This document shows, piece after piece, positions 1-61,282 of a stretch of DNA of 64,000 nt. The stretch is from Squalus acanthias. Lineage: Eukaryota. The position numbers and the translations under genes are program-made. Position 1 is the first letter of the stretch. Each line of letters begins with the position of its first letter. The notes beneath the pieces are model-generated. The model saw only the letters and a program-made list of their open reading frames with translations, was not told the origin of the DNA and did no database searches. The stretch is from contig CM059431.1 in assembly GCA_030390025.1 (NCBI GenBank), positions 135,596,001 to 135,660,000 on the forward strand. Direction: 5' to 3'.

Positions 1-436
1 TGCTGCTCAGTACCCAAAACTCCTTCACACAGTGTTGAATCTCTCCAGAAGTCTCTCTCTCTCTCTCTCAGAAAGCGTGGTTCAAAAATGTCACCAACAA
101 TAAAAGGCAGGAAACGGTCGCCTTTAAGCGCTCCCCCAGTCTCTTCCTGACTGCAAAACGCTCCCCTCAACCTGTCGTTGCTAGCGTCAGGCGGTAAGGC
201 AGGGGGCGCCACTCAATATCCGCTCTGGGGCGATACCGGGGCGTTGCGCACTCAACTGACATCACGATCTGCCGGCGCAGGAGATCGTGGCGGTAGTGTT
301 TAGCGCCACCGCAAAATGTCTAGTTAATTTTGCGAGCGGTGCAAACATCGCCGCGCCCGGGCGCTAGAGGCTTTGCGCCCCATTAGCGCCCTCTTAAGGC
401 GCTAACGGGAGGCGCAACCAACTGAATTTTTCCCCC
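1..436. mobile_element. Non-autonomous Harbinger-like TIR element, family A, copy 1 (cut off by the window start)
   Basis: Collinear with 59531-59968. Ends in the TIR ACTGAATTTTTCCCCC, followed by ATA (437-439) and the CR1 tail remnant gagtcata. Confidence 0.9.
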
Positions 437-1656: not shown

Positions 1657-1826
1657 GGAGGAGGTGGATCTGTGTGGGAGCGGCAGCAGGACCTGAGAGA
1701 AGGCAGAGCGGCCATAAAAGAGCACTGCAGAGGAGGCCTGACACCGGAGGAGGCGGACCTGTGTGAGAGCGGCAGCGGGACCTGAGAGAAGGCGGAGCGG
1801 CCATAAAAGAGTGCTGCAGAGGAGGC
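1657..1826 (+). repeat. Two tandem 89-bp monomers in the CR1 5' UTR
   Basis: ggaggagg(t/c)gga...gcggcagc(a/g)ggacctgagagaagg...gagcggccataaaagag starts at both 1657 and 1746. Confidence 0.88.
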
Positions 1827-2075
1827 TGTGAGTTGGGAAAGAGTCCGAGAGCGGGAGCAGTCAAACAACAACTGCGAAACCGCTAAAGTGATGTCACAAC
1901 CAGGAAAGGAGCTGATTGGTAAGTAGGACCTGGTGAGTATTTCTACAGTCCAGTCATTGAAATAAAAGTAAGGCCTCTAGTTTAGAGTAAGTAGTGTTTA
2001 AAGGGAAGTAAGGTCCCAAGTGTATTTAATATTCTTTAATTTAAAGGAAGTAAAGGGAGTAAATTAAGGGTAGGA

Positions 2076-2998
2076 TATGACAGTGCTCCTCCTGTGCTAT
2101 GTGGGAAGTCAGGGACACTTTATGTGTCCAGTGCGAACACATGTGCAGGAAGTGTCTCCAGTTGCAGCTATTCGAAATCCGCGTTTCGGAGCTGGAGCTG
2201 CGACTGGAGTCACTGTGGAGCATCCGCGAAGCTGAGATCTTCATGGATAACACATTTAACGAGGTGGTCACACCGCAGGTAAAGAGTGCACAGGCAGACA
2301 GGGAATGGGTGACCACCAGACAGAGTAAAAGAACTAGGAAGGTAGTGCAGGAGTCCCCTGGGTCCATATCCCTCTCCGACAGATTTTCTGTTTTGGATAC
2401 TGCTGGGGGAGATGGTTTCTCAGGGGAATGCAGCAAGAGCCAAGTCCGTGGCACTACTAGTGGCTCAGCTGCACAGGAGGGGAGGAAAAAGAGTGGGAGA
2501 GCAATAGTGATAGGGGATTCTACCGTAAGGGGAATAGATAGATGATTCTGTGGCCGCAGACGTGACTCCAGGATGATATGTTGCCTCCCTGGTGCCAGGG
2601 TCAAGGATGTCACTGAACTGCTGCAGGGCATTCTGAAAGGGGAGGGCGAACAGTCAGAGGTCGTGGTCACATTGGTACCAACGACATAGGTAGAAAGAGG
2701 GATGAGGTCCTGCAACAAGAATTTAGGGAGCGAGGTACCAGATTAAAAAGCAGAACCTCAAAGGTTGTAATCTCTGGATTACTCCCGGTGCCACGTGCTA
2801 GTGAGTACAGGAATAGGAGGATAGAGCAGATGAATGCGTGGCTAAAGAGTTGGTGCAGGAGGGAGGGCTTTAGTTTCCTGGATCACTGGGTCTGCTTCTG
2901 TGGAAGGTGGGACCTGTACAAGTTGGACCTGAACCGGAATGGAACCAACATCCTTGCGGGGAGGTTTGCTAGTACTGTTGGGGGTGGGGTTTAAACTA
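2076..2998 (+). pseudogene. CR1 ORF1 (Cys cluster/leucine zipper plus SGNH esterase-like domain), disrupted
   Basis: CxxCAMWE...HMCRKCLQLQLFEIRVSELELRLESL, IVIGDSTVRG, CLPGA, HIGTNDIG (frameshifted) and NAWLKSWCRREGF. Contains stops and frameshifts. Confidence 0.85.
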
Positions 2999-3000
2999 AC

Positions 3001-5885
3001 TTGGCAGGGGATGGGATACGGAGTGGAGCTATAGTAGGGGGTGATGCACAGCCAAATTTAGAGGAAAAAACAAGTCAGCCTGGAAGGCTGAGCAAATATG
3101 TAACGGCACAAGGGAGTATGGCAAGGCTGAATGGCATTTATTTTAATGCAAGGAGTCTTGCGAGTAAGGCTGATGAATTGAAGGTGTTGATGAACACATG
3201 GGAGTATGATATTGTTGCTATCACAGAGACATGGTTGAGGGAGGGGCAGGACTGGCAGCTCAATATTCCGGGGTATAGAATCTTCAGGCGAGACAGAGGG
3301 GGGTGTAAAAGAGGAGGGGGTGTCGCAATATTAATCAAGTTGTCAATTACTGCTGTAAGGAGGGATGATATCTAAGCAGGTTCCTCTAATGAGGCCATAT
3401 GGGTAGAACTTAAAAACAAAAGGGGGCAAGCACTTTGCTGGGAGTGTACTATAGGCCCCCAAACAGTCAGGGGGAGATAGAGGAACAGATATGTAGGCAA
3501 ATCTCAGAGAAGTGTAGAAATAATAGGGTAATAAGAGTAGGGGATTTCAACTTCCCCAATATTAACTGGGATAGTCAGAGTGTGAAAGGCTTAGAGGGTG
3601 CAGAATTGTTAAAGTGCATCCAGGAGAGCTTTTTGAGCCAGCATGTAGAAAGTCCTACAAGAGAGGGGGCAGTACTGGACCTAATTCTAGGGAATGTAGC
3701 CAGGCAAGTGGTACAAGTGTCAGTAGGAGAGCATTTTGGTGACAGTGACCATAATTCGGTGAGATTTAAGGTAGTCATGGAAAAGGACAAAGATGTACTG
3801 GAAATAAAGGTTCTAAATTGGGGAAGGCCGATTTTAATATGATAAGGCAGGATCTGGCCAAAGTGGACTGGGATCAGCTACTTGTAGGAAAATCCACATC
3901 AGAGCAGTGGGAGTCTTTCAGAAAGGAAATAGAGAGAGTACAATGCCAACATATTTCCATAAAGGTCAAGAGTGGAACCAACAAGCCCAGGGAACCCTGG
4001 ATGTCAAGGGATATACAATAATGGATTAGGAAAAAAAGGGAGGCTTTTGGCAGCTACAAAGGACTAAAAACAATGGAAGCCCAAGAGGAGTATAGAAAGT
4101 GCCGGGGGGTACTTAAAAAAGAAATTAGGAGAGCGAAGAGGGGGCATGAAATAACATTGGCGGGCAAAATAAAGGAAAATCCCAAGGTGTTTTATAAGTA
4201 TATTAAGGGCAAGAGGATAACCAGGGAAAGAGTAGGGCCCATTAGGGACCAAAGTGGCAAACTGTGTGTCGAGCCGAAAGATGTGGGTGAGGTTTTAAAT
4301 GAATATTTTGCATCTGTGTTCACTATGGAGAAGGACGATGTAGGCATAGAAATCAGGCAGCGGGATTGTGATATACTTGAACAAATTAGCATTGAGAGGC
4401 AGGATGTACTAGCGGTTTTAGCGGGCTTAAAAGTGGATAAATCCCCAGGTCCAGACGAGATGTATCCCAGGCTGCTGTGTGAGGCAAGGGAGGAGATTGC
4501 AGGGGCTCTGACACAAATTTTCAGAACCTCTCTGGCCACAGGGGAAGTGCCAGAGGACTGGAGGACAGCTAACGTAGTACCATTATTCAAGAAGGGTATT
4601 AGGGATAAACCAGGGAATTACAGGCCAGTGAGCCTAACATCAGTGGTCGGGAAATTATTGGAAAAAATTCTGAGGGACAGAATTAGTCTCCACTTGGAGA
4701 GGCTAGGATTAATCAAGATTAGTCAGCATGGCTTTGTCAGGGGGAGATCATGTCTAACCAATTTGATTTAATTTTTCGAGGGGGTGAGTAGGTGTGTGGA
4801 TGAGGGTAGTGCAGTTGATGTAGACTACATGGACTTCAGTAAGGCTTTTGACAAAGTCCCACATGGGAGACTGGTCAAGAAGGTAAGAGCCCATGGGATC
4901 CAGTGCAATTTGGCACATTGGATCCAAAATTGGCTTAGTGGCAGGAGGCAGAAGGTGATGGTCGAAGATTGTTTTTGTGACTGGAAGCCTGTGTCCAGTG
5001 GTGCACCGCAGGGATCGGTGCTGGGTCCTTTGCTGTTTCTGGTGTACATTAATGATTTAGATATGAATGTAGGAGGTATGATCAGTAAGTTTGCAGATGA
5101 CACAAAATTTGGTGGAGTGGTAAATAGCGAGGAGGGAAGCCTTAGGCTATAGGACAATATAGACGGGTTAGTCAGATGGGCAGAACAGTGGCAAATGGAA
5201 TTTAACCCTGAATACACAATGAATGGTAGGACCCTAGGAAGGACAGAGGATCAGAGGGACCTTGGTGTGCATGTACATAGATCACTGAAGGCAGCAGGAC
5301 AGGTAGATAAGGTGGTTAAAAAGGCATATGGGATACTTGCCTTCATTAGCCGAGGCATAGAATATAAGAGCAGGGAGGTTATGATGGAGCTGTACAAAAC
5401 GCTAGTTAGGCCACAGCTGGAATACTGTGTGCAGTTCTGGTCGCCACACTATAGGAAGGATGTGATTGCATTGGAGAGGGTGCAGAGGAGATTTAGCAGG
5501 ATGTTACCTGGGCTGGAGCGCTTCAGCTATGATGAGAGATTGGATAGGCTGTTTTTTTTTTTCCTTAGATCAGAGAAGGCTGAGGGGGGACCTGATTGAG
5601 GTGTACAAAATTATGAGGGGCATAGGTAGGGTAGATAGAAAGGAACTTTTCCCCTTAGTAGAGGGGTCAATAACCAGGGGTCATAGTTTCAAGGTAAGGG
5701 GCAGGAGGTTTAGAGGGGATTTGAGGGAAAACTTTTTCACCCAGAGGGTGGTTGGAATCTGGAACTCACTGCCTGAAAGGGTGGTAGAGGCAGGAACCCT
5801 CACAACATTCAAGAAGCATTTAGATGAGCACTTGAAACGCCATAGCATACAAGACTACGGACCAAGTGCTGGAAAATGGGATTAG
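3001..5885 (+). pseudogene. CR1 ORF2 (APE endonuclease plus reverse transcriptase), disrupted
   Basis: EN motifs YFNARSL, AITETWL, GVYYRPPN, GDFNFP, LDLIL and SDH. RT motifs [30 protein letters not shown] and FADDTK. Broken into several ORFs. Confidence 0.92.
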
Positions 5886-5957
5886 AATAGACAGGGCTTG
5901 ATGGCCGGCGCGGACACGATGGTCCGAAGGGCCTCTTTCTGTGCTGTATAGCTCTAT

Positions 5958-6839
5958 GGGGGAAAAATTCAGTTGGTTGCGCCTCCCGTTAGCGCCTTAA
6001 GAGGGCGCTAATGGGGCGCAAAGCAACTAGCGCCCGGGCACGGGGATGTTTGCGCCGCTCGCGAAATTAACTGGACATTTTGCGGCGGCGCTAAACACTA
6101 CCGCCACGATCTCCTGCACTGGCAGATCGTGACGTCAGTCGAGTGCAAAACGCCCCCGAGCGGATATTGAGTGGCGCCCCCTGCCTTACCGCCTGCCGCT
6201 AGCAACGACAGGTTGAGGGGAGAGTTTTGCTGTGAGGAAGGGACTGGGGGAACGCTATTTAAAGGTGACCACTTCCTGCCTTTTATTGTTGGTGACATTT
6301 TTGAACCACGCATTCTGAGAGAGAGAGAGAGAGACTTCTGGAGAGATTCAACGCTGTGTGAAGGAGTTTTGGGTACTGAGCAGCACTTTGCAGGTTCATT
6401 TTGATTTGCCCTTCCTTGTATCGATTTAGAAGAGACTGTGGGGGCTGCACTCTGAGCTCTTTCCCTGGGGCTCTCCATTGTTCTTTCCAGCAGATTTGAT
6501 GTACAGGTCTCTCCAGGCCGAGATTCAAGGCTGCAATGAGCAGGATGTGGATGGAAAGCAAGATCAACCCTCCCCTTTAAGAACTGGCCGGCGCCATTGT
6601 GTGTGTGTTCCATTGCTGACTGACATCACATGAGCTTTGCCAGGGCTCTGAGTTAGTGCCTCGCTCCCAGGCCTTTGCGCCTGAAGACAAGTGTGAAGCG
6701 CCTGATTTAGTGCTCCAATCACCTCCAGGGGCGATAAAAGTCAAGTTTGCAGTCGGAGGCGATAATTAGTGCCAGTCGCTAATCTTTGCGCCCGGCCGAT
6801 AATTGCGCCCCAAATGGGGCGATACTGAATTTCTCACCC
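5958..6839. mobile_element. Non-autonomous Harbinger-like TIR element, family A, copy 2 (882 bp, inverted relative to copies 1, 3 and 4)
   Basis: Ends are GGGGGAAAAATTCAGT and ACTGAATTTCTCACCC. TAT is duplicated at 5955-5957 and 6840-6842. Lies inside the CR1 (ctatgact)n tail. Confidence 0.92.
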
Positions 6840-8344
6840 TATGACTCTATGACTCAATCCATCTGGACCAGGCGACTTATCCACTCTAAGCATACCCAGC
6901 CTTTCTAGTACATCCTGTCTATCAATTTTTACCCCTTCCTTTGCTTCTGCCTTTTCCACTTCTACCGATATTTGTCAGCATCCACCTCCGTAGTAAACAC
7001 CGATACAAAGTACTCATTGAGTACTCTAGCCTTGCCCTGCGCCTCTAAGCATATATCACCTTCTTTGTCCCTAATAGGCCCCACTCCGCCTCTTACTACC
7101 TGCTTACTGTTTACAGGCCGGTAGAAGATTTTTGGGTTCCCATTTATGTTAACCGCCATTCTACTCTCATATTCTCTCTTTGCCAATCTTATTTTCATCT
7201 TCACTTCCCCTCTCAACTTATTGTATTTGGTCTGATTTCCCTTGAAGAATTCACCTGACATTCATCATACACCCTCTTTTTTTGTTTCATCTTCTTATCT
7301 ATCTCCCTCGTCATCCAAGGAGCCCTTACCTTGGTTCCCTTACCCTTCCCTCTTGTTGGAATGTACCTAGCCTGTACTTGGAACATCTCCTTAAAGATCA
7401 CCCATTGTTCCGTTACAGTATTTCCTGTCAGTCTTTGGTTCCATTTTACCCTGGCTAGATCCTTTCACATCCCATTGAAGTTAGCCCTATTCCAGTTTAG
7501 AAGTTCCACTCTAGATTGTTCCTTGCTTCTCTCCATTGCTAATCTAAATCTTATGATATGATGATCACTCGTACCCAAGTGTTCTCCCACAGACACTTGG
7601 TCGACCTGGCCCACCTCATTCCCCAGCACCAGATCCAGCAATGTCTCCTTCCTAGTTGGGCCAAGAACATACTGGTCAAGGAAATTCTCCTGAACACATT
7701 TCAGAAATTCCTCCCCCTCCTTTCCCTTTACCCTAGCATTATCCCATTCGATATTTGGGTAATTAAAGTCCCCCAATATCACCGCTCTATAGCTCTTGCA
7801 TATCTCTGCGATTTCCCTGCAGATTTGCTCCTCTACCTCCCTCTCACTATTTGGAGGCCTATAAAATACCCCCAATAGCGTGATCATACCCTTTTTGCTC
7901 CTCAACTCTAACCAAATGGATTCTGTCCTTGTCCCCTCAAGAACATCCTCCCTTTCCAACACTACAATGTCTTCCTTAATCAGCACTACGACCCCACCTC
8001 CCTTTTTTGCTTCCCTATCTTTTCTGAACACCTTGTACCCTTGAAAATTAAGTGCCCAGTCCTCACCGTTTTTGAGCTACGTTTCCGTTATTGCCACAAC
8101 ATCATATTGCCACACGGCTAATTGTGCTTGTAGCTCACCAACCTTATTCACCACACTTTGTGCGTTTAAGTACATGCATTCTAAACCCATTTTTGAATTT
8201 TTTGTAGTCTGCTCCTATCTAATATGGTACTACTTCCACCTCTAGTACTACTTTCTTCTCTAGTAGTATCCAACACACTCACTCTTTTATGCACCTTATT
8301 CCTCTTTTCTACTCCTATATGCTGGTGCCCATCCCCCTGCCAAG

Positions 8345-42600: not shown

Positions 42601-44423
42601 ACTCTGCCGCTCTGGCTCTCCGCTCCCGCTCTGTTTAAAGTACTCTGCGGCTCTGGCTCTCTGCTCCCGCTGTTTAAAGTACTCTGTCGCTCTGGCTCTC
42701 TGCTCCCACTCTGTTTAAAGTACTCTGTCGCTCTGGGTCTCCGCTCCCGCTCTGTTTAAAGTACTCTGCCACTCTGGCTCTCCTCTCCCGCTCTATTTAA
42801 AGTACTCTGCCACTCTGGCTCTCCGCTCTCGCTCTGTTTAAAGTACTGTGCCGCACTGGCTCTCCGCTCCCGCTCTGTTTAAAGTACTCTGCCACTCTGG
42901 CTCTCCGCTCCCGCTCTGTTTAAAGTAATCTGCCGCTCTGGCTCTCCGCTCCAACTCTGCGTAAAGTACTCTGTCGCTCTGGCTCTCCGCTCCCGCTCTG
43001 TTTAAAGTACTCTGTCGCTCTGGCTCACCTCTCCCACTGTTTAAAGTACTCTGTCGCTCTGGCTCTCCGCTCCCGCTCTGTTTAAAGTACTCTGTCGCTC
43101 TGGCTCTCCTTCCCACTGTTTAAAGTACTCTGTCGCTCTGGCTCTCCGCTCCCGCTCTGTTTAAAGTACTCTGTCGCTCTGGCTCTCCACTCCAACTCTG
43201 CGTAAAGTACTCTTTCGCTCTGGCTCTCCGCTTCCGCTCTGTTTAAAGTACTCTGCCACTCTGGCTCTCCGCTCCCGCTGTTTAAAGTACTCTGCCGCTC
43301 TGGCTCTCCGCTCCCTCTCTGTTTAAAGTACTCTGTGCTCTGGCTCTCCGCTCCCGCTCTGTTTAAAGTACTCTGTGCTCTGGCTCTCCGCTCCCACTCT
43401 GTTTAAAGTACTCTGTTGCTCTGGCTCCCTGCCCCCGCTGTTTAAAGTACTCTGTCGCTCTGGCTCTCCGCTCCCGCTCTGTTTAAAGTACTCTGTCGCT
43501 CTGGCTCTCCGCTCCCGCTCTGTTTAAAGTACTCTGCCACTCTGGCTCTCCGCTCACGCTCTGTTTTATGTACTCTGTTGCTCTGGCTCTCTGCTCCCGC
43601 TGTTTAAAGTACTCTGTCGCTCTGCCTCTCCGCTCCCGCTCTGTTTAAAGTACTCTGTTGCTCTGGCTCTCTGCTCCCGCTGTTTAAAGTACTCTTTCGC
43701 TCTGGCTCTCCGCTCCCGCTCTGTTTAAAGTACTCTGCCACTCTAGCTCTCCGCTCACGCTCTGTTTAAAGTACTCTGCCGCTCTGGCTCTCTGCTCCCG
43801 CTCTGTTTAAAGTACTCTGTCACTCTGGCACTCCGCTCCCGCACTGTTTAAAGTACTCTGCCGCTCTGGCTCTCTGCTCCCGCTCTGTTTAAAGTACTCT
43901 GCCACTCTGGCTCTCCGCTCCCGCTCTGTTTAAAGTACTCTGTCACTCTGGCTCTCCGCTCCCGCTCTGTTTAAAGTACTCTGCCACTCAGGCTCTCCGC
44001 TCCCGCTCTGTTTAAAGTACTCTGCCGCTCTCGCTCTCCGCTCTCGCTCTGTTTAAAGTACTCTGCCACTCTGGCTCTCCGCTCCCGCTCTGTTTAAAGT
44101 ACTCTGCCACTCTGGCTCTCCGCTCCCGCACTGTTTAAAGTACTCTGTCGCTCTGGCTCTCCGCTCCCGTTCTGTTTAAAGTACTCTGCCACTCTGGCTC
44201 TCCGCTCCCGCTCTGTTTAAAGTACTCTGCCACTCTGGCTCTCCGCTCCCGCTCTGTTTAAAGTACTCTGCCACTCTGGCTCTCCGCTCCCGCTCTGTTT
44301 AAAGTACTCTGTCACTCTGGCTCTCCGCTCCCGCTCTGTTTAAAGTACTCTATCGCTCTGGCTCTCCGCTCCCGCTCTGTTTAAAGTACTCTGTCGCTCT
44401 GGCTCTCCGCTCCCGCTCTGTTT

Positions 44424-44829
44424 CCATAAGAACATAAGAAATAGGAGCAGGAGTAGGCCAATCGGCCCCTCGAGCCTGCTCCGCCATTCAATAAGATCAT
44501 GGCTGATATGATCCTAACCTCAAATCTAAAGAACACAAGAAGTAGGAGCAGGACCCGGCCACTCAGCCCCTGGGCCCGCTCCGCCACCCACAGGGCCTTG
44601 ACCGATCCGAACTCAGCCTCATGTCCAATTTCCTGCCCGCTCCCCGTAACCCCTAATTCCCTTTACTTCTAGGAAACTGTCTATTTCTGTTTTAAATTTA
44701 TTTAATGATGTAGCTTCCACAGCTTCCTGGGGCAGCAAATTCCACAGACCTACTACCCTCTGAGTGAAGAAGTTTCTCCTCATCTCAGTTTTGATAGAGC
44801 AGCCCCTTATTCTAAGATTATGCCCCCCA
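44424..44829 (-). mobile_element. 5'-truncated CR1 3'-end fragment inserted in the satellite, copy 1
   Basis: Starts with the tail (cataagaa)n and matches the reverse complement of the CR1 3' end at about 53140-53578. gttt occurs on both sides. Confidence 0.9.
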
Positions 44830-45933
44830 GTTTAAAGTACTCTGCCGCTCTGGCTCTCCACTCCCGCTCTGTTTAAAGTACTCTGCCACTCTGGCTCTCT
44901 GCTCCCGCTCTGTTTAAAGTACTCTGTTGCTCTGGCTCTCTGCCCCCGCTGTTTAAAGTACTCTGTCGCTCTGGCTCTCCGCTCCCGCTCTGTTTAAAGT
45001 ACTCTGTCGCTCTGGCTCTCCGCTCCCGCTCTGTTTAAAGTACTCTGCCACTCTGGCTCTCCGCTCACGCTCTGTTTTATGTACTCTGTTGCTCTGGCTC
45101 TCTGCTCCCGCTGTTTAAAGTACTCTGTCGCTCTGCCTCTCCGCTCCCGCTCTGTTTAAAGTACTCTGTTGCTCTGGCTCTCTGCTCCCGCTGTTTAAAG
45201 TACTCTTTCGCTCTGGCTCTCCGCTCCCGCTCTGTTTAAAGTACTCTGCCACTCTAGCTCTCCGCTCACGCTCTGTTTAAAGTACTCTGCCGCTCTGGCT
45301 CTCTGCTCCCGCTCTGTTTAAAGTACTCTGTCACTCTGGCACTCCGCTCCCGCTCTGTTTAAAGTACTCTGCCGCTCTGGCTCTCTGCTCCCGCTCTGTT
45401 TAAAGTACTCTGTCACTCTGGCTCTCCGCTCCCGCTCTGTTTAAAGTACTCTGTCACTCTGGCTCTCCGCTCCCGCTCTGTTTAAAGTACTCTGCCACTC
45501 TGGCTCTCCGCTCCCGCTCTGTTTAAAGTACTCTGCCGCTCTGGCTCTCCGCTCTCGCTCTGTTTAAAGTACTCTGTCACTCTGGCTCTCCGCTCCCGCT
45601 CTGTTTAAAGTACTCTGCCACTCTGGCTCTCCGCTCCCGCTCTGTTTAAAGTACTCTGTCGCTCTGGCTCTCCGCTCCCGTCTGTTTAAAGTACTCTGCC
45701 ACTCTGGCTCTCCGCTCCCGCTCTGTTTAAAGTACTCTGCCACTCTGGCTCTCCGCTCCCGCTCTGTTTAAAGTACTCTGCCACTCTGGCTCTCCGCTCC
45801 CGCTCTGTTTAAAGTACTCTGTCACTCTGGCTCTCCGCTCCCGCTCTGTTTAAAGTACTCTGTCGCTCTGGCTCTCCGCTCCCGCTCTGTTTAAAGTACT
45901 CTGTCGCTCTGGCTCTCCGCTCCCGCTCTGTTT

Positions 45934-46339
45934 CCATAAGAACATAAGAAATAGGAGCAGGAGTAGGCCAATCGGCCCCTCGAGCCTGCTCCGCCATTCA
46001 ATAAGATCATGGCTGATATGATCCTAACCTCAAATCTAAAGAACACAAGAAGTAGGAGCAGGACCCGGCCACTCAGCCCCTGGGCCCGCTCCGCCACCCA
46101 CAGGGCCTTGACCGATCCGAACTCAGCCTCATGTCCAATTTCCTGCCCGCTCCCCGTAACCCCTAATTCCCTTTACTTCTAGGAAACTGTCTATTTCTGT
46201 TTTAAATTTATTTAATGATGTAGCTTCCACAGCTTCCTGGGGCAGCAAATTCCACAGACCTACTACCCTCTGAGTGAAGAAGTTTCTCCTCATCTCAGTT
46301 TTGATAGAGCAGCCCCTTATTCTAAGATTATGCCCCCCA
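45934..46339 (-). mobile_element. 5'-truncated CR1 3'-end fragment inserted in the satellite, copy 2
   Basis: Apparently identical to 44424-44829, with the same junctions, at an offset of 1510 bp. Confidence 0.9.
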
Positions 46340-47323
46340 GTTTAAAGTACTCTGCCGCTCTGGCTCTCCACTCCCGCTCTGTTTAAAGTACTCTGCCACT
46401 CTGGCTCTCTGCTCCCGCTCTGTTTAAAGTACTCTGTTACTCTGGCTCTCCTCTCCTGCTCTGTTTAAAGTACTCTGTCGCTCTGGCTCTCTGCTCCCGC
46501 TGTTTAAAGTACTCTGTCGCTCTGGCTCTCCACTCCCGCTCTGTTTAAAGTACGCTGCCGCTCTGGCTCTCCGCTCCCGCTCTGTTTAAAGTACTCTGTC
46601 GCTCTGGCTCTCCTCTCCTGCTCTGTTTAAAGTACTCTGTCGCTCTGGCTCTCCGCTTCCGCTGTTTCAAGTACTCTGTCACTCTGGCTCTCCTCTCCCT
46701 CTCTGTTTAAAGTACTCTGTCGCTCTGGCTCTCCGCTCCCGCTGTTTAAAGTACTCTGTCACTCTGGCTCTCCTCTCCTGCTCTGTTTAAAGTGCTCTGT
46801 CGCTCTGGCTCTCTGCTCCCGCTGTTTAAAGTACTCTGTCGCTCTGGCTCTCCGCTCCCTCTCTGTTTAAAGTACACTGCCGCTCTGGCTCTCCGCTCCC
46901 GCTCTGTTTAAAGTACTCTGCCACTCTGGCTCTCCGCTCCCGCTCTGTTTAAAGTACTCTGTCACTCTGGCTCTCCGCTCCCGCTCTGTTTAAAGTACTC
47001 TGTCGCTCTAGCTCTCCGCTCCCACTGTTTAAAGTACTCTGCCACTCTGGCTCTCGACTCCCACTCTGTTTAAAGTACTCTGCCACTCTGGCTCTCCGCT
47101 CCCGCTTTTTTTAAAGTACTCTGCTGCTCTGGCTCTCCGCTCCCGCTCTGTTTAAATTACTCTGCCGCTCTGGCTCTCCGCTCCCGCTCTGTTTAAATTA
47201 CTCTGCCGCTCTGGCTCTCCTCTCCCGCTCTGTTTAAATTACTCTGCCGCTCTGGCTCTCTGCTCCCGCTCTGTTTAAAGTACTCTGCCACTCTGGCTCT
47301 CCTCTCCCGCTGTTTAATGTACT

Positions 47324-48932
47324 TTGCTGTCTATTCTTAAAGTTGATAAGTCACCAGAACCGGATGGGATGCATCCTCGGATGCTGAGGGAGGTTAAGGA
47401 GGAAATCACAGAAGTACTGGCCATAATCTTCCAATCCTCCTTAGATAGCGGGGTGGTGCCAGAGGACTGAAAAATGGCAAATGTTACACCCTTTTTCAAA
47501 AAAGGATATAAGGATAAATCCAGCAACTACAGGCCGGTCAGTTTAATCTCGGTCGTGGGGAAGCTTTTCGAAACGATAATGAGGGACAAAATTAACTGTC
47601 ACTTGAACAAGTGTGGATTAATTAAGGAAAGCCAGCACGGATTTGTTAAAGGCAAATCATGTTTAACTAACTTGATTGAGTTTTTTGATGAGGTAACAGA
47701 GAGGGTTGATGAGGGCAATGTGGTTGACGTGGTGTATATGGATTTCTAAAATGCGTTTGATAAAATACCACATAATAGGCTTGCCAGCAAAGTTGAAGCC
47801 CATGGAATTAGTGGGACAGTAGCAGCATGGACACGAAATTGGCTAAGTGACAGGAAACAGAGAGTAGTGGTGAACAGTTGTTTTTTGGACTGGAGGAAGG
47901 TATACAGTGTTGTTCCCCAGGAGTTAGTACTGGGATCACTGCTCTTCTTGATATATATTAATGACTTGGACTTGGGTGTACAGGGCATAATTTCCAAATT
48001 TGCAGATGACACAAAACTTGGAAGTATAGTGAACAGTGCAGAGGATAGTGATGGTTTTCAAGAAGACATAGGCAGGCTGGTGAAATGGGCGGACACATGA
48101 CAGATGAAATTTAATGCAGAAAAGTGCGAAGTGATATATTTTGGTAGGAAGAATGAGGAGAAGCAATATAAATTAAAGCGTACAATCCTAAAGAGGCTGC
48201 ATGAACAGAGAGACCTGGGGGTATATGTGCACAAATCGTTGAAGGTGGCAGGGCAGGTTGAGAATGCAGTTAGAAAAGCATACGGGATACTGGGCTTCAT
48301 AAATAAAGGCAGAGAGTACAAAAGCAAGGAAGTTATGATGAACCTTTATAAAACACAGTGGTTCGGCCTCAACATGAAGTATTGTGTCCAATTCTAGGCA
48401 CCGCACTTTAGGAAGAATGTGAAGGCCTTAGAGAGGGTGCAGAAAAGATTTACGAGAATTATTCCAGGGATGAGGGACTTCAGTTACGTGGATAGACTGG
48501 AGAAGCTGGGGTTGTTCTCCTTAGAGCAGAGAAGGTTGAGAGGAGATTTGATCGAGGTATTCAAAATTATGAGGAGGTCTAGACAGAGTAGATAGAGAGA
48601 AACTGTTCCCATTGGCAGAAGGGTCAAGAACCAGAGGACACAGATTTAAGGTGATTGGCAGCAGAACCAAAGGCGACATGAGGAAGAACTTTTTTACGCA
48701 GCAAGTGTTTAGGATCTGGAAGGCACTGCCTGAAAGGGTGGAGGAGGCAGACTCAATTGTGGCTTTCAAAAGGGAATTGGATAAGTACCTGAAAGAAAAA
48801 AAAATTGCAGAGCTACGGGGAAATGGCCGGGGAGTGGGACTAGCTGGAGTGCTCTTGCAGAGAGCCGGCACGGGCTCAATGGGCCAAATGGCCTCCTTCT
48901 GTGCTGTAACCATTCTATGATTCTATTCTATG
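47324..48932 (+). mobile_element. 5'-truncated decayed CR1 LINE capping the right end of the satellite
   Basis: LKVDKSP..., [35 protein letters not shown] and RTRGHRFKV. Ends in a ttctatga-type tail. Confidence 0.92.
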
Positions 48933-50053
48933 ATCAGCAGCAGTAGAATCGAATTCCACAACAATCTGTAACCTCATGGCCCAGTATATCCCTCACTCTA
49001 CCATTACCATCAAACCAGGAGAACAACCCTAGTTCAATGAGAGTGTAGAAGAGCATACCAGGACCAGCACCAGACGTACCTAAAAATGAGGTGCTAACCT
49101 GGTGAAACTACAACTCAGTACTACATGCATGCTAAACAGCAGAAGCAGCATGCTATAGACAGAGCTAAGCGATCCCACAACCAACAGATAGATCAAAGCC
49201 CTGCAGTCCGCCACATCCAGTAGTGAATGGTCGTGGACAATTAAAAAACTAACGGGAGGAGGAGGCTTCATGAACATTCCCATCCTCAATGATGTCAGAG
49301 CCCAGCATGTGAGTGCAAAAGACAAGACTGAATGGTTCGCAACCATCTTCAGTCAGAAGTGCCGAGTGAGTGATCTATCTCGACCTCCTCCTGAGGTCCC
49401 CACCATCACAGGTCTGTGCTGTCCACAAAAAGCAGGATAAATCCAATCTGGACAATTACCACCCCATCAGTCTATCCTCAATCATCAGCAAAGTGATGGA
49501 AGGTTTCATCAACAGTGCTATCAAGCTGCACTTACCAATAACCTGCTAACCGATGCTCAGTTTGGGTTCCGCCAAGATTACTCTGCTCCAAACCTCATGA
49601 CAGCCTTGGTCCCAACATGGACAGAAGAGCTGAATTCTGGAGGTGAGGTGGGAGTGGCTGCCCATATCATCAAGGCAGCATTTGGCCAAGTGTGACTGCA
49701 ATGTGCACCTAAAAGATGCACTGCAGCAACTCGCCAAGGCTTCTTCAACAGCACCTCCCTAACCTGCGACCTCTACCACCTAAAAGGACAAGGACAGCAG
49801 GTGCATGGGAACACCAACACCTCCAAGTCACGCACCATCCTGACTTGGAAATATATCACCATTCTTCATCGTCGCTGGGTCAAAATCCTGAACCCCCCCA
49901 CCTAAAAGCACTTTGGGAGTACCTTCACAACTCAGACTGCAGTGGTTCAAAAAAGTGGCTCACCACCACCTTCTCAAGGACAATTAGGGATGGACAATAA
50001 ATGCTGGCCTTGCCAGCGATGCCCACATCCCATGAATCAATGAATGAAAATAA
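48933..50053 (+). mobile_element. Old, internally deleted non-LTR retrotransposon of a second family (CR1/L2 group)
   Basis: Degenerate RT motifs: NY.PISL..IISKVMEG (about 49453-49503), QFGFRQ and IKAAF..V (about 49669-49693). The 3' end gggatggacaataaatgctggccttgccagcgatgcccacatcccatgaa is shared with the 54449 element. Confidence 0.7.
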
Positions 50054-51058: not shown

Positions 51059-52668
51059 GGCCCAGAAATTGATCTCGCTCTGTTCCCGCGGGGGTAAGGC
51101 TTCCCCGCGATCTCTCACTCCGCCTGTGCTTTTACAGATCCAGCTCGCACGAACTTGATGTTCCAGACATCAGCTGGGCAGTGCTTGCGTATCCCACCGG
51201 CGTAGTGAATTCGTGCGAGCTGTGGGATCACGTGACTCAGTTAGAGCCAATGGCAGCACACCATCTTCCATTCATAAGTTTCACATACGTGCTGTGAAAT
51301 CTATGGGGTAGAAATTAGGTCGCGCCCCATTTGGGGCGCAAATATCGTCCGGACGCAAATTTTCGCGCCTGGCGCTAATTATCGGCACTGACGGGAAACT
51401 TCACTTTTACCGCCCCGGGAGGTGAGTGGAGCGCTAAAGCAGGCGCTGCACACCTCTCTTAAGGCGCAAAGGCCGAGCAGTGAGGCGCTAACTCGGAGCG
51501 CTGGCGAAGCTCATGTAATGTCAGTCAGCAATGGAACACACACACAATGGCACGGGCCAGTTCTTAAAGGGGATGGTTAATCTTGCTTTCCATCCACATC
51601 CTGTTCATTGCTGCCTTGAATCTCGGCCTGGAGAGACTTGCACATCAAATGTGCTGGAAAGAACAATGGAGAGCACCAGGCAAAGAGCTCAGAGTGCAGC
51701 TCCCACGGTCTCTGCTAAATCGATACAAGGAATGGCAAATCAAAATGAACCTGCAAAGTGCTGCTCAGTACCCAAAACTCCTTCACACAACGTTGAATCT
51801 CTCCAGAAGTCTCTCCCTCTCTCTCTCAGAATGCGTAGTTCAAAAATGCCACCAACAATAAAAGACAGGAAGAGGCCCCCTTTAAATAGCGCCCCCCCCC
51901 AGCCCCACAGCGATTGATAGCGTTCCAGTCTTCTGGTCGTTGGAAGCGCCAGGCGGTAAGGCAGGGGGCGCCACTCAATTTCCGCTACGGGGCGCCCCAA
52001 GGGCGTTGCACCATGGAATGACGTCACAATCTGCGCGCGCAGGTGGTCGCAGCGGTAAGTTTTAGCGCCGCCGCACAATCTCAAGTTAAGTTCTCGAGCG
52101 GCGCAAACATCGCTGCGCCCGGGCGTTAGCGGCTTTGCGCCCCATTAGCGCCCTCTTCAGGCGCTAACGGGTGGCGCAACCAAGTGAATTTTTACCCCTA
52201 TGAATCTTACACCCCCCCAAAATAACAGCTAAACCTCAATTAAATTTTTTAAAAAACCATCACATTAATAAAATAAGTATAGTTAAATAAATTAACCATT
52301 TTAAATAAAAAATTAAAATTTTGAAAAAATTTTAAATCTTTTAAAAAGTTATAAAAATAAACTTACCTGTCTTTAAAGTCTCTAAAAAAGATATACCTTT
52401 TAAAAAAAATTCAAAAAAATACTTAATTCACTACTTACCTTGTTAAAAGTGGGTCTTACTCCTCCTTTTTCCATTTCTAAAATCTTCCGTACTTAACTGC
52501 GCGTCCAAAGCATGAAGTGCACAGCATGCGCGCAGCCTGTAGCGCGCACGCGATGCACCGAGGAACCGCCCCCTTTTCAAAAGACCAAGTGCCGGTTTTC
52601 AGCGCATGCGCAGGGCATGCAGAAAACCGGCAATTGGAGAGAGAATACGCGAGATGAATTTTTGGCCC
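51059..52668. mobile_element. Non-autonomous Harbinger-like TIR element, family B, copy 1 (contains family A copy 3)
   Basis: Ends are GGCCCAGAAATT and AATTTTTGGCCC, with flanks ATT and AAT (one mismatch). Removing it restores the CR1 frame AIYYLNG. Collinear with 61283-62046. Confidence 0.85.
51305..52198. mobile_element. Non-autonomous Harbinger-like TIR element, family A, copy 3 (diverged subfamily)
   Basis: Ends are GGGGTAGAAATT and AATTTTTACCCC. TAT is duplicated at 51302-51304 and 52199-52201. The empty site aacTATgaat is present in family B copy 2 (about 61534-61543). Confidence 0.92.
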
Positions 52669-53642: not shown

Positions 53643-54216
53643 GGGCAAAATATTTGTTTAGGCCATTTTTGGGAACAGAATTGATGATGTGCTAAGAGTG
53701 CACACCAGAAGCCGGAGAAACAATGCTTCAGGCCTCAGGCATATTTCTGGCAAGCTGCGGCCGCACATCAGGCGGAGGCATCTCGCCAGTTAGAGCAGTA
53801 ACTATTTGGGCCAGCAGCAGTCCTCAGGTAGGTTGTGGGAGGGAGAAGAGGAATGGGAGCAGCTGCCAATGGCCCTCGGGAGTGCTGTGGAGATGTGAGG
53901 AGCACTCCTGCTCCTCCTGGCTCCATATGAAGGTAAAGTAAAAATGTACCATTTTTCTTGACGGCTGTTGGTTAGCTGCACCAATCGTTGGGAAGCCTGA
54001 CTGGAAAATGAGGCTTTAGGCCTCTCATTAACATATGAAAGGGGCCTAACACCTGTTTAAGGTAGTTGCCCAGGAAGCCTGAATATCGTCTGAGGCCAAT
54101 ATGGCATTGGACGTATTTCAGGCATCCCTGGGTAGCGGGATGTAGCTCCATGAAATTGGACATTTTTGACCCCATTTTACACCCAAAAAATGGGTGAAAT
54201 GATCCATTTCTAGGCC
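53643..54216. mobile_element. Possible old non-autonomous Harbinger-like element
   Basis: Right end atttctaggcc resembles the family B terminus and a degenerate left end reads gggcaaaatatt. No clean TSD and no second copy in the window. Confidence 0.3.
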
Positions 54217-55407: not shown

Positions 55408-55861
55408 AGCCTAGAAATTCGGGGGTTTGGCACCGGCCATTCAGCCTTGTTTTGAAGAAAAAATGGTGGCTGACTCGCTTCCGCCCACTTCCGGCGGGTT
55501 CTGCGGCATCTGCCATTTTGGACAGGCCGGCAGCTCTGCCATTGCCAGTGCTCGCTAGAGAAATGGAATGAGGCACTTTGATGCATGATCTGCCATTTTC
55601 GAAGTCACCGCTCCACTTACCGCCCTCTCTTAATTACGAGCAGCTGACCAAGCATTCAGCAGCAGTAAGGAGTCACCAACAGCGTTATTTAAAACGATCA
55701 TCAACAACAACTTACAGCTGGCATGGTTTCTCAGTTTTACTGGCTCTGTCCAGGTTTCTGCCTCTTGCAGCTTTCTAATCTTGTTTAAAGTTGCTGAGGG
55801 CACAGGGAGTGTTGCTATAAGTGGAGAACGCCTTGATTCTCATTTAAAGGCTTCTACTCAG
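55408..55861 (+). mobile_element. Probable left end (TIR, promoter, 5' UTR) of the Harbinger element whose transposase starts at 58798
   Basis: Begins AGCCTAGAAATT, similar to the family B TIR GGCCCAGAAATT. Contains GCCATTTT twice, CACTTCCGG and tatttaaaa. Only a CR1 insertion separates it from the transposase ATG. Confidence 0.5.
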
Positions 55862-58773
55862 GTCAGGTGAGGAGAAATTTAGAAATCAAAAGGGAAAAGA
55901 CAAGGCAATGGAGCAGTGCAGCGATTTGGGTAAAGATAAGCAGAGTGTGACAGGAAGGGACAGAGAGTTTAACAGTAATAGTACATCAGCAAATAAGGTG
56001 AAAACAGGGAATAATGGTAAAAAGTTCAAATTAAAGGCTCTTTATCTGAATGCACAAAGCATTCATAACAAGATAGACAAATTAATGGCACAAATAGAGA
56101 TAAATGGCTTTGATCTAATAGCCATTAGAGAGGCGTGGTTGCAAAGTGACTAAGGTTGGGAACTAAATATTCCAGGGTACTTGAAGTTTCAAAAAGAGAG
56201 GCAGAATGGAAAAGGAGGGGGTTAGCCTTGATAATAAAGGATGATATAAGGATAGTAGTGAGAAAGGATCTTGGCTCAGAAGATCAGGAAGTAGAATCAG
56301 TGGAGATAAGAAATAACAAAGGGCAGAAAACACTGGTGGGAGTTGTTTATAGGCCCCCAAACAGCATCTATACTGTTGGACAGAGTATTAATTGTAACAA
56401 AGGTAGTACTATAATCATGGGGGCTTTAATCTTCATATAGACTAGGCAAATCAAATTGGCAAAGGTAGTCTGGAGGAACAATTTATGGAATGCATTTGAG
56501 ACAGTTTCCTAGAACAATACATTATGGAACCAACCAAGGAACAGGTTATTTTAGATCTTGTATTGTGTAATAAAACAGGGTTAATTAGGAATCTCATAGT
56601 AAAGGATCCTCTGGGGAAGAGTGATCATAATATGAAGAATTTCACATTGAGTTTGAGAGTGAAATACTTCAGTCCAAAATGAGAGTCTTAAACTTAAATA
56701 AAGCCAATTACATAAGTATGAGGAGTGAGTTGGCTAAGGTAGATTGGGAAATTAGATTAAAAGCTATGATGGTAGATAAGCGGTGGCAAACATTTAAAGA
56801 AATATTCTAAAATTCTCAATGAATATACATTCCATTGAGAAATAAAAATGCCATGGGAAAAGTGATTCATCCATGGCTAACTAAAGAAGTTAAGGATAGC
56901 ATTAGATTAAAAGAAGAGGCTTCTAATTTTGTGAAGAATAGTAGTAAGCCTGATGATTGGGGGAGCTTTAGAAACCAGCAAAGGATGACCAGAAAATTGA
57001 TAAACAGGGAGAAAATAGAATATGAGAGTAAACTAGCAAGAAATATAAAAACAGATTATAAGAGCTTCTACAAGTATGTAAAAAGGTAAAGAGTAGCAAA
57101 AGTAAGCGTTGGTCCCTTACAGGCTGAGACAGGTGAAATTATAATGGGAACATAAGGAAATGGCAGAGACTTTTTAAAGAAATATTTTGTATCTGTTTGC
57201 ACAGTGGGAAGCCTAGGGGCTAATAAGAGTGAGGAATGTAAAGTAATTAATATCAGTAGAGAAAAAATACTTGAGAAACTAATGGGACTAAAAGCTGACA
57301 AATCCCCTGGACTGGATGGCCGACATCCTAGGGTTCTAAAAGAGGTGGTTACAAAGATAGTGGATGTATTGGTTGTGATCTTCCAAAATTCCCTAGATTC
57401 TGGAACGGTCCAAGCGGATTGGAAGGTAGCAAATGTAACCCTGCTATTCAAGGAGGGAGAGAGAAAACAGAGAACTACAGGCCAGTTAGCCTGACATCAG
57501 TCATTGGGAAAATGTTGGAATCCATTATTAAGGAAGTGGTAACAGGGCACTTAGAAAACCATAACTTGATTAGGCAGAGTCAACATGGTTTTATGAAAAG
57601 GAAATCATGTTTAACAAATTTATTAGAGTTTTTTGAGGATGTAACTTGCAGGGTAGATAAAGGGGAACCAGTGGATATAGTATATTTGGATTTCCAAAAG
57701 GCATTCGATAAGGTGCCACGTTAAAGGTTGCTCCATAAGAAAAGGGCTCATGAGGTTGGGGATAATATATTAGCATGGATAGAGGATTGGTTAATGGGAA
57801 GAAAACAGAGAGTAGGGATAAAGGGGTAATTTTCCGGTTGGCAGGCTGTAACTAATGGGGTGCCGCAAGGATCATTGCTTGGGCCTCAGCTATTTACAAT
57901 CTATGTTAATGACTTAGATGAAGGGACCAAGTGCAATATATCCAAGTTTTTTGACAATACAAAGCTAGGTGGGACAGTAAGCTGTGAGGAGGACACAAAG
58001 AGCCTGCAAAGGGATATAGACAGGTTAAGTCAGTGGGCAATGAGGTGGTAGATGGAGTATAATGTGGGGAAATGTGAGGTTATTCACTTTGGTAGGAAGA
58101 ATAGAAAAACAGAATATTTTTTAAATGGTGAGAAACTATGAAATGTTCGTGTTCAGAGAGATTTAGGTGCCCTCGTACAGGAAACACAGAGAGTTAGCAT
58201 GCAGGTAGAGCAAGCAATTAGGAAAGCAAATGACATATTGGCCTTTATTGCAAGGAGGTTGGAGTACAAGAGTAAAGAAGTTTTAATACAATTGTACAGG
58301 GCTTTGGTGAGACCACATCTAGAGTAATGTGCACAGTTTTGGTCTCCTCATCTTGAAAGGACATACATGCCTTAGAGGCGGTGCAACAAAGGTTCACTAG
58401 GATGATCCCTGAGATGAGAGGGTTGTCCTATAAGGAGAGATTGAGTAGATTGGGCCTATACTGTCTGGAGTTTAGAAGAATGTGAAGTGATCTTATTGAA
58501 ACATGTAAGATTCTTAGGGGGATTGACACGGTAGATGCTGAGAGGTTGTTTCCCCTGGCTGGAGTGTCTAGAACGAAGGGGCATAGTCTCAGGATAAGGA
58601 GTTGGCCATTTAAGGTTGAGGTGAGGAGGAATTTCTTCACTCAGAGGGTTGTGAATCTTTGGAATTCTCCACCCGAAAGGGCTGTGAATGTGGAGTCGTT
58701 GATCTTTTGAATGGCGGAGCAGACACAAAGGGCTGCATGGCCTACTCCTGCTACTAATTCTTATGTTCTTATG
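55862..58773 (+). mobile_element. Heavily decayed CR1 LINE, ORF2 region (EN plus RT) through the tail
   Basis: LYLNAQSIHNK, GVVYRPPN, DKSPG.DG.HPRVLKE, YRPVSLTS, YLDFQKAFD and PQGSLLGP. Many stops. Tail ttcttatgttcttatg. Confidence 0.9.
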
Positions 58774-58797
58774 TCCTCACACCACTTGCTCACTGTC

Positions 58798-59063
58798 ATG
58801 TGGGCTCTACTTGCAATCCCCCTCACACTCGAGTATCTTCAGGAGAGGGAGCGGATGCAGCGAAGAGGAGGAGAAGATGCTTGCTGAGGGAGGAGGAGGC
58901 CTTACCCACCTAGGGTTTTCCGAGAGCACTTCACTTACCTCCACTTAAGCGGAGAGTTATGTATGAGGAAGTTTCGCTTCACCAAGGAGGTGGTCATAGA
59001 ACTCTGCCACCTCCTGCAACCAGACCTGCAGCCTCAGAGCTGGGTGACCACGGCTCTCCCAGT
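58798..59063 (+). pseudogene. PIF/Harbinger transposase (HARBI1-like), N-terminal fragment
   Basis: Manual translation from ATG 58798 with one internal stop gives ...RRRPYPPRVFREHFTYLHLSGELCMRKFRFTKEVVIELCHLLQPDLQPQSWVTTALPV, then a CR1 tail cuts it. Confidence 0.8.
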
Positions 59064-59075
59064 CATAGAGTCATA

Positions 59076-59968
59076 GGGGGAAAAATTCAGTATCGCCCCA
59101 TTTGGGGCGCAATTATCAGCCGGGCGCAAAGATTAGCGCCTGGCACTAATTATCGCCACCGACTGCAAACTTGACTTTTATCGCCCCTGGAGGTGATTGG
59201 AGTGCTAAATCAGGCGCTTCACACCTGTCTTAAGGCGCAAAGGCCGAGGAGCGAGGTGCTATCTCAGAGCGCTGGCAAAGCTCATGTGATGTCAGTCAGC
59301 AATGGAACAGAGACACAATGGCACGGGCCAGTTCTTAAAGGGGAGGGTTGATCTTGCTTTCCATCCACATCCTGCTCATTGCAGCCTTGAATCTCGGCCT
59401 GGAGAGACCTGTACATCAAATCTGCTGGAAAGAACAATGGAGAGGCCCAGGGAAAGAGCTCAGAGTGCAGCCCCCACAGTCTCTTCTAAATCGATACAAG
59501 GAAGGGCAAATCAAAATGAACCTGCAAAGTGCTGCTCAGTACCCAAAACTCCTTCACACAGCGTTGAATCTCTCCAGAAGTCTCTCTCTCTCTCTCTCAG
59601 AATGTGTGGTCCAAAAATGTCGCCAACAAAAAAAGGCAGGAAGCGGTCGCCTTTAAATAGCACTCCCCCAGTCCCTTCCTGACTGCAAAACGCTCCCCTC
59701 AACCTGTCGTTGCTAGCGGCAGGCGGTAAGGCAGGGGGCGCCACTCAATATCCACTCCGGGGCGCTGCCGGGGCGTTGCGCACTCGACTGACGTCAAGAT
59801 CTGCCGGCGCAGGAGATCGTGGCGGTACTGTTTAGCGCTGCCGCAAAATGTCTAGTTAATTTCGCGAGCGGCGCAAACATCACCGCGCCCGGGCACTAGT
59901 TGCTTTGCGCCCCATTAGCGCCCTCTTAAGCCCCTAATGGGAGGCACAACCAACTGAATTTTTCCCCC
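59076..59968. mobile_element. Non-autonomous Harbinger-like TIR element, family A, copy 4 (893 bp)
   Basis: Perfect 16-bp TIR GGGGGAAAAATTCAGT / ACTGAATTTTTCCCCC. ATA is duplicated at 59073-59075 and 59969-59971. Lies inside the CR1 tail. Confidence 0.95.
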
Positions 59969-60191
59969 ATAGTGTCATAATGGCACAGAAGGAGGCCGTT
60001 TGGCCCATCGAGTCTTTGCCGGCTCTCTGTAGAGCAATCCAGTCAGTGCCATTCCCCCACTCTATCTCCGTAGCCCTGCAAGTTTATTTCCCTCAAGTGC
60101 CTATCCAGTCTCCCCTTGAAAACATTGAGTGTCTCCGCTTTCACCACTTCCGTCGGCAGCGAATTCCAAGTTATCACCACTCGCTGTGTAA

Positions 60192-60831
60192 TCATAGAAT
60201 CATAGAAATTTACAGCACGGAAGAAGGCCATTTCGGCTCATCATGTCTGCGCCGGCCAACAAAGAGCTATCCAGCCTAATCCCACTTCCCAGCTCTTGGT
60301 CCGTATCCCTGCAGGTTAGAGCATCCCAAGTGCACATCCAAGTACTTTTTAAATGTGGTTAGGGTTTCTGCCTCTACCACCCTTTCAGGCAGTGAGTTCC
60401 AGACCCCCACAACCCACTGGGTGAAGAAATTTCCCCTCAAATCCCCTCTAAACCTTCCACCAATTACTTTAAATCTGTGCCCCCTGGTTTTTGACCCCTC
60501 TGCTAAGGGAAATAAGTCCTTTCTATCCACTGTATCTATGCCCCTCATAATTTTATACGCCTCAATAAGGTCTCCTCTCAGCCTCCTCTGTTCCAAGGAA
60601 AACAGACCCAGCCTATCCAGTCTTTCCTCATAGCTAAGATTCTCTACTCCTGGCAACATCCTTGTAAATCTCCTCTGTACCCTCTCTAGTGCAATCACAT
60701 CTTTCCTGTAATGTGGTGACCAGAACTGCACGCAGTACTCTAACTGAGGTCTGACTAGTGTTTTATACAGTTGAAGCATAACCCCACCTGCTCTTGTATT
60801 CTATGCCACGGCTAATTCCATATGCGTATTC
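60192..60831 (-). mobile_element. Short 5'-truncated CR1 3' fragment nested in a CR1
   Basis: Open ORF2 C-terminus (LYKTLVRPQLEYCVQFWSP...GKWD) and tail (atcataga)n. tgtaa is repeated at 60187-60191 and 60832-60836. Confidence 0.9.
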
Positions 60832-61282
60832 TGTAAGAATGTTTTTCCTCACGTCCTCCCGTATCTCTTGCCCCAAACCTTAAATCTGAGTCCCCTAGTC
60901 CTTGTACCATCAACTAGTGGGAACAGCGTTTCCCCGTCTAGCCTATCCAAACATCTATCAAATCACCCCGCAACCTCCTTTGCTCTAATGAAAACAAATC
61001 CAGCTTCTCCAACCTGTCCTTGTAGCTAAGATCCACCATCCTCAGAACCATTCTGGTAAATCTCCTCTGCACCCTCTCAAGGGCCTTCACATCCTTCCTA
61101 AAGTGTAGTGACCAGAACTGGACGCAATACTCCAGTTGTGGCCTAACCAGCACTTTATAAAGGTTCAGCATAACTTCTCTACTTTTGTACTCAATACCTC
61201 TATTTATGAAGCCCAAGATCCCATATGCTTTGCTAACTACTCTCTCAATATGTCCTGCCACCTTCAGGGACCTATGCACATT

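Follow-up and report, generated by a model that had tools for sequence, protein, structure and literature searches.

The present locus raises the question of why a short DNA transposon, here named family A, lies so often in the 3´ tails of CR1-type LINEs, and whether the tails themselves or a DNA motif within them attract it. Four copies of family A (A1 to A4) were identified by blastn and alignment in the window, the whole 64-kb stretch of DNA that was analysed. A2 (5958–6839, plus strand, 882 bp), A3 (51305–52198, minus strand) and A4 (59076–59968, minus strand, 893 bp) are complete, whereas A1 (1–436, minus strand) is truncated at the window edge and comprises the left part alone. The complete copies are 882–894 bp long and non-coding. 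A1, A2 and A4 share 93–95% pairwise identity in the alignment, and each is 83–86% identical to A3, which represents an older subfamily and occupies a non-tail site. The element is bounded by 15-bp terminal inverted repeats (TIRs) with the sequence GGGGGAAAAATTCAG, which begin with GGGG at all seven ends inside the window; the right TIR of A2 is mismatched at 2 of the 15 positions. An Rfam search of the A2 region (5900–6900) and a Pfam search of the two longest A2 frames that are free of stops each returned zero matches, and a coding or structured-RNA role for family A is therefore unsupported. A scan of metagenome contigs with the TIR pattern found no stretches. The CpG observed/expected ratio is 0.72 in A4, compared with 0.34 in the neighbouring LINE at 1657–5957, which is consistent with youth or with a CpG-rich master.

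All three complete copies are flanked by a target site duplication (TSD) of 3 bp. For A2, TAT is located at 5955–5957 and 6840–6842 on the plus strand, as defined by alignment, and the right copy is followed by the remainder of the (CTATGACT)n tail (6840–6854). The TSD of A3 is TAT on the plus strand (51302–51304 and 52199–52201), and that of A4 reads ATA on the plus strand (59073–59075 and 59969–59971), its right copy adjoining the minus-strand tail units at 59061–59075 (blastn and alignment). A1 is visible on one side, where its target half (TAT, 437–439) and the first CR1-alpha tail unit occupy 437–452 on the minus strand. The rebuilt empty sites are TAGCTC-TAT-GACTCT (A2), GAAATC-TAT-GAATCT (A3) and TGACAC-TAT-GACTCT (A4). 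The MITE that hosts A3 (family B, 51059–52668, TIR GGCCCAGAAATT) has a paralog at 61283–62046 in which the A3 site is unfilled and holds a single TAT (CAAAAC-TAT-GAATAC, 61531–61545), which establishes a TSD length of 3 bp. Family B itself is flanked by the TSD ATT, seen at the paralog and as ATT/AAT in one copy, and both copies are inserted in LINE bodies, outside tails.

A1, A2 and A4, that is, three of the four copies, sit in (CTATGACT)n CR1-type tails in one shared orientation, and each occupies the first CTAT unit of its tail. The host of A2 is a near full-length but decayed CR1-beta LINE (1657–5957, plus strand), which spans 1657–6854 with A2 included and interrupts the LINE hosting A1. 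It contains a GDSL-esterase ORF1, an AP endonuclease and a reverse transcriptase (Pfam Lipase_GDSL_2, Exo_endo_phos and RVT_1) and ends in an 8-bp tail unit; we call it CR1 on the assumption that an esterase ORF1, an AP endonuclease with RT and a short tandem 3´ tail are CR1 markers. An 89-bp unit, present in 1.9 repeats, forms its 5´ end (1657–1826). The 3´ part of the CR1-alpha LINE hosting A1 is located at 437–1656 on the minus strand and apparently resumes at 6855 beyond the CR1-beta insertion; contig loose ends just before 6855 resemble 1630–1656 of this host. The CR1-alpha host of A4 (59969–62775, minus strand) is 5´-truncated and is itself split by a further CR1 as well as by a family B MITE. 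The hosts of A1 and A4 belong to one CR1 subfamily, with 90.6% identity over 223 nt, and the two tail events may consequently not be independent; the A2 host is 65% alike. Two unoccupied CR1-type tails composed of CTATGATT units lie at 48908–48936 (plus strand) and 60190–60212 (minus strand). In these respects the first-pass annotation is reproduced: its reconstructed empty sites agree with those rebuilt here for A2, A3 and A4, its 3-bp duplication of TAT/ATA rather than TWA is seen at 3/3 complete copies and in the empty paralog, and its placement of three of four copies in the tails of two CR1 subfamilies with uniform orientation corresponds to CR1-alpha for A1 and A4 and CR1-beta for A2.

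The four sites at CTATGA are not chance: of the 3829 A/T-triplet sites in the window before the insertions, counted outside the satellite, CTATGA accounts for 17. Three of them have the motif in common because they lie in tails, and A3 is the only independent confirmation of a CTATGA-type site. Flanks from elsewhere were read in public sequencing runs. Part of family A is carried by 20 runs from 8 studies, four of which were aligned to 5900–6900 (30,273–70,667 contigs each), and the flank readings are taken from 24 of 2379 loose-end rows, 8 of which concern element flanks. The flank rows of family A derive from two organisms (G and H); for the organism in which the element is best represented (A), the rows listed are of a sister TIR variant only. 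Among the rows listed, the plurality flank at the left end is AAACAC-ATA (267 contigs in X15 and 540 in X16) or AAACAC-ATT (191 contigs in X16), and that at the right end is ATA-ATGTTT (213 contigs in X16). CTATGA does not hold up as the family-wide motif that had been proposed, given that these flanks have T rather than A at +2 and include ATT cores. The mean agreement is 0.38–0.39 over 30 letters (median loose length 255), which indicates heterogeneous flanks from many unrelated loci; contig counts and depth represent neither copy number nor tail share. Because a flank that ends in -AT is identical to the reference, it stays hidden in loose-end rows, where forward tail insertions are not countable. 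Reverse tail insertions would appear as AGAGTC-ATA, from which the ATA-class plurality among the rows listed differs. In three rows (99, 146 and 346 contigs) the tail of the A2 host is empty and continues into unique DNA; empty CR1-beta tails are thus common, and family A is no fixed part of CR1-beta.

The sister variant, with the TIR GGGGGAAAAATTCGG (rows at 5977), exhibits TAA/TTA duplications within the same flanks in all four runs. Its flanks are AAAGAC-TAA in 156 (X1) and 209 (X2) contigs, where the median loose length is 19–21 and only some contigs reach the flank, AAAAAC-TTA in 322 contigs (X15) and AAACAC-TTA in 475 contigs (X16). Termini that are closely related thus appear to be paired with different core triplets.

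The zebrafish element Harbinger3_DR has the target consensus AAACACCWGGTCTTT, with the flanks AAACAC-CWG-GTCTTT (PMC3016246). Compared in one orientation, each of the eight contig flank rows agrees with this element at 5 or 6 of the six flank letters. AT-rich background may partly explain the A letters found from −4 to −6 of the contig consensus; it does not account for the C at −1 and −3. When the window sites are scored against the 12 flank letters of Harbinger3_DR, A4 obtains 8, A2 obtains 7, and A3 and both family B sites (B1 and B2) obtain 6 each; among local A/T-triplet sites, a score of at least 6 is attained by 10% and one of at least 7 by 2.8%. For the three non-tail sites (A3, B1 and B2), the agreement with this outside pattern has a probability of ~0.001 if they are independent. 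Filled tail units score 7–8 of 12, within the top 3% of local sites, and the unfilled tail units listed score 6; at −2 and +2, where tail units have T and A, respectively, they are opposite to the contig consensus. The pattern A-N-N-Y-[TSD]-R-N-N-T fits A3, A4, B1 and, on its visible side, A1. A2 and B2 have G at −4, where the majority letter of the A2 host family (5951) is A. Extended targets are known from plants, where they measure 9 bp, and from vertebrates, where they measure 15 bp (PMC2836001). Judged by sequence, the target of family A is the palindrome already described for vertebrate Harbingers, here with an A/T core, and CTATGA is its tail-biased version. The contig consensus and the window scores support an extended target preference beyond the 3-mer, as the first-pass annotation had suggested, and the tail unit, ACTC-TAT-GACT, is among the best local flank matches, in line with its claim that target and CR1 tail coincide. 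Its assignment of family A to a Harbinger-type cut-and-paste family is likewise upheld by the short TIRs, the 3-bp TSD, the empty sites and the Harbinger3-type flank consensus.

Tail enrichment was evaluated in 23.7 kb of rebuilt non-satellite window DNA, with the A1 site added by hand, as the chance of at least three of four insertions falling in tails. For CTATGA, 9 of 18 sites are located in tails (P=0.31), and for ANWCWWWGWNT 6 of 15 (P=0.18). The values decrease for ANNCWWWGNNT (6/25, P=0.045), for ANWYWWWRWNT, the loose motif implied by the contigs (6/47, P=0.0075), and for CWWWG (9/201, P=0.00035). Across 12 settings of the Harbinger3 score, one extreme is P=0.74 (TAT/ATA core, score of at least 7, C and G adjacent; 3/4 sites in tails) and the other is P<0.0001 (any A/T core, score of at least 6; 7/382 sites in tails); a TAT/ATA core with a score of at least 6 gives P=0.0016 (7/94 sites in tails). 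The excess vanishes only with strict motifs fitted after the fact (CTATGA and ANWCWWWGWNT). The comparison of tail insertions with CTATGA abundance, which had been put forward as a check, therefore divides within the window: there is no excess over CTATGA itself (P=0.31), and there is one over broader motifs (P 0.0075 to <0.001). The answer depends on the strictness of the true motif, which four copies cannot fix, and the window was chosen post hoc. CTATGA-type tails are filled in three of five cases and independent CTTATG-type tails in none of three (Fisher P=0.20).

We favour, at a probability of about 0.6, the reading that CR1 tails are sequence-defined hotspots for family A through motif coincidence, with nothing needed beyond the DNA motif. 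Family A is an abundant non-autonomous Harbinger-type element (PHIS superfamily), presumably served in trans by an autonomous partner. The transposase would cut a 3-nt staggered A/T-rich core, observed as TAT/ATA and also ATT/AAT, and would read a Harbinger3_DR-type flanking palindrome of ~15 bp, AAACAC...GTGTTT/GTCTTT, which is the plurality consensus in related organisms. CR1 ends in 8-bp repeats, and a (CTATGACT)n unit joined to a full second unit would present ACTC-TAT-GACT. Because this unit is among the best local flank matches, every new CR1 insertion would supply a further tail hotspot. Family A inserts widely outside tails as well, and the harmlessness of landing in a tail, read as a safe-harbour niche in the first-pass annotation, would be a by-product.

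A true homing element would instead prefer CR1 3´ tails, recognised by their tandemly repeated 8-bp units or by the 3´ UTR next to them, and would insert in a fixed orientation, and LINE activity would provide it with a renewable, harmless niche. Three of five suitable tails are filled in ~24 kb of non-satellite DNA, all in the first CTAT unit, in one orientation and in two LINE subfamilies, with an excess over loose motifs (P 0.0075 to <0.001); the sole non-tail copy, A3, belongs to the older subfamily (86%), which leaves the young subfamily with three of three in tails. Homing is nevertheless unlikely, and so, to the same degree, is the narrower proposal that the young subfamily shifted its target to the CR1 8-bp tail repeat, in fixed orientation and far above motif prediction. 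Hundreds of contigs from two related organisms have non-tail plurality flanks and hundreds of tails are empty, the uniform orientation of three tail copies has an arithmetic probability of 0.25, the use of the first unit is predicted by the flank score, and the CTATGA test reveals no excess. The shared host subfamily and insertion unit of A1 and A4 would also agree with a single entry of the MITE into a CR1-alpha source tail, followed by joint retrotransposition of LINE and MITE, in which case A1 and A4 are one event and two of three events are in tails. Such copying would fit the persistence of tail units 3´ of the MITE and the divergence of the A1 and A4 MITEs (14/356 non-CpG sites), which is not significantly lower than that of their hosts (45/891, two segments pooled and a third, with 12/144, left out; Fisher P=0.46). 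However, A1 and A4 have no common derived sites against A2 and A3, and the young copies form a star with 11, 12 and 14 private sites, although a composite formed from a fresh copy could also produce a star. At positions where A2 differs from a letter common to A1 and A4, that letter is mostly the one held by the majority of the family. In addition, the A2 host is only 65% alike, and stringent-type LINEs are reported to need a 3´-end structure (PMC3747384), which 890 inserted bases would part from the tail. We regard this composite origin as improbable, somewhat more so than homing; A2 and A3 are separate insertion events. Duplication of A1 and A4 together with their hosts at the DNA level was rejected, since the host ends differ and so do the surroundings.

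The least probable explanation, by a narrow step, is that insertions of any kind are tolerated where repeats are dense next to a large satellite, or that the element hops locally, and that the tail pattern is a small-sample result. The four copies do lie within ~27 kb of nested repeats that adjoin a satellite of 37.5 kb, n is four, and most tests are post hoc. Local accumulation leaves unexplained, however, the score of 6 at A3, B1 and B2, which 10% of sites attain, and the contig consensus, and the motif exists in any case.

Compared with known systems, family A is closest to Harbinger elements in the broad sense. Short TIRs starting with G or A are a criterion of Harbinger/PHIS elements (PMC4482050), and family A has a GGGG-starting TIR, a 3-bp TSD and an extended palindromic target. 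The strict PIF/Harbinger group of Han et al. 2015 has the TSD TWA, whereas family A has TAT/ATA in the window and ATA and ATT in the contig rows. From these sequence features, family A would be placed in the broad Harbinger/PHIS superfamily, outside the strict TWA group. Harbinger3_DR (PMC3016246) likewise has a 3-bp TSD within a 15-bp near-palindrome, and the flank consensuses match at 5–6 of 6 letters; family A differs in its core (TAT/ATA or ATT/AAT, not CWG), in being non-coding and in individual window sites that match at 6–8 of 12. MITEs of the PIF/Tourist type, for example mPing (PMC2836001), and the PIF/Harbinger group (PMC4482050) resemble family A in that their TIRs are short and start with G, their TSD is A/T-rich and 3 bp long, their target preference is extended and their amplification is non-autonomous; family A departs from them in a TSD that is not TWA. 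According to PMC4482050, NuwaII (C|TNA|G) shares the C before and the G after the triplet, and Pangu (ANT) fits the ATT class, but TAT/ATA falls outside the triplets of the PHIS groups (TWA; CWG, NuwaI; TNA, NuwaII; ANT, Pangu). Its supplementary family tables may list TAT/ATA-type TSDs. Nothing on a TAT/ATA TSD appears in the available parts of PMC4122938, PMC12730594 and PMC8437027. A literature search, with most subscription papers and Repbase outside its scope, found no Harbinger with TAT/ATA/AWT/WWW TSDs and, among titles and the starts of abstracts, no DNA transposon in LINE tails.

Preference for repeats is not confined to this family. MuTAnT of Medicago is reportedly a microsatellite-associated MITE and is grouped with the Ac-mMITEs of pineapple. 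Both are Mutator-derived and target (TA)n, in contrast to family A, which is of the Harbinger type and lies in an 8-bp LINE tail unit, with counts from one window. The Ac-mMITEs are, like family A, DNA transposons concentrated in simple repeats, which PMC8449440 interprets as damage-limiting. Dada and Pokey also insert into repeated host sequence, and Pokey elsewhere too (PMC3706591); their targets are RNA genes, however, and Dada is strict and generates TSDs of 6–7 bp. Strict specificity of the Dada kind is not seen in family A, of which A3 lies outside a tail and hundreds of contigs have heterogeneous flanks. Repeat-homing DNA transposons and extended Harbinger targets are known already; on sequence grounds, family A would add a TAT/ATA core and LINE-tail sites.

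The comparison suggests that the 15-bp Harbinger3_DR flank is common to shark-like Harbinger families, with a varying central triplet (CWG, TWA, TAT/ATA or ATT). If the flank is constant and the core variable, flank reading and core choice would be separable, and PHIS groups based on the TSD would miss a class. Harbingers were not found in the elephant shark, and a survey of other cartilaginous fish is called for, according to PMC9179366; family A bears on this gap. If the tail excess is true genome-wide, a DNA transposon has landing sites made by a LINE, and if it is not, family A illustrates clearly how a coincidence of motifs can create a hotspot.

Outside the satellite, the window consists of nested repeats. 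The satellite (9749–47323, 37.5 kb) comprises ~923 copies of a 41-bp unit and starts near the 5´ end of the minus-strand LINE hosting A1; as a guess, it may have arisen by expansion of a 5´ tandem unit of that LINE. Within the satellite, two copies of a LINE 3´ fragment (44401–44860 and 45911–46370), 1510 bp apart, are 100% identical, which reflects either a higher-order duplication of very recent date or an artefact of assembly.

A decayed autonomous Harbinger spans 55408–63609 and is apparently interrupted by two LINEs. A TIR-like end, AGCCTAGAAATTCGG (55408–55425, plus strand), is probably its left end and has an AAATT core in common with family A. The N-terminal part of its transposase is located at 58798–59064 (plus strand; tblastn of P0001, residues 1–102) and the C-terminal part at 62779–63609 (plus strand; Pfam DDE_Tnp_4), the two being split at residue 102/104 of P0001 by the CR1-alpha host of A4. 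Pfam searches of single transposase pieces gave no match for three of four. Two of 18 candidates are homologs, both from a sawshark and annotated HARBI1-like, with 83% and 72% identity, in keeping with DNA of cartilaginous-fish origin, and a transposase scan of metagenome contigs returned 198 pattern matches and no confirmed relatives. Derivation of family A from this element by deletion was rejected, with best matches of 10–19 nt at E values of at least 0.1; between the interior of family A and the window's copy of the transposase, no similarity was found. Two more TIR-like motifs on the minus strand at 54172–54216 are possibly the ends of another Harbinger-type element.
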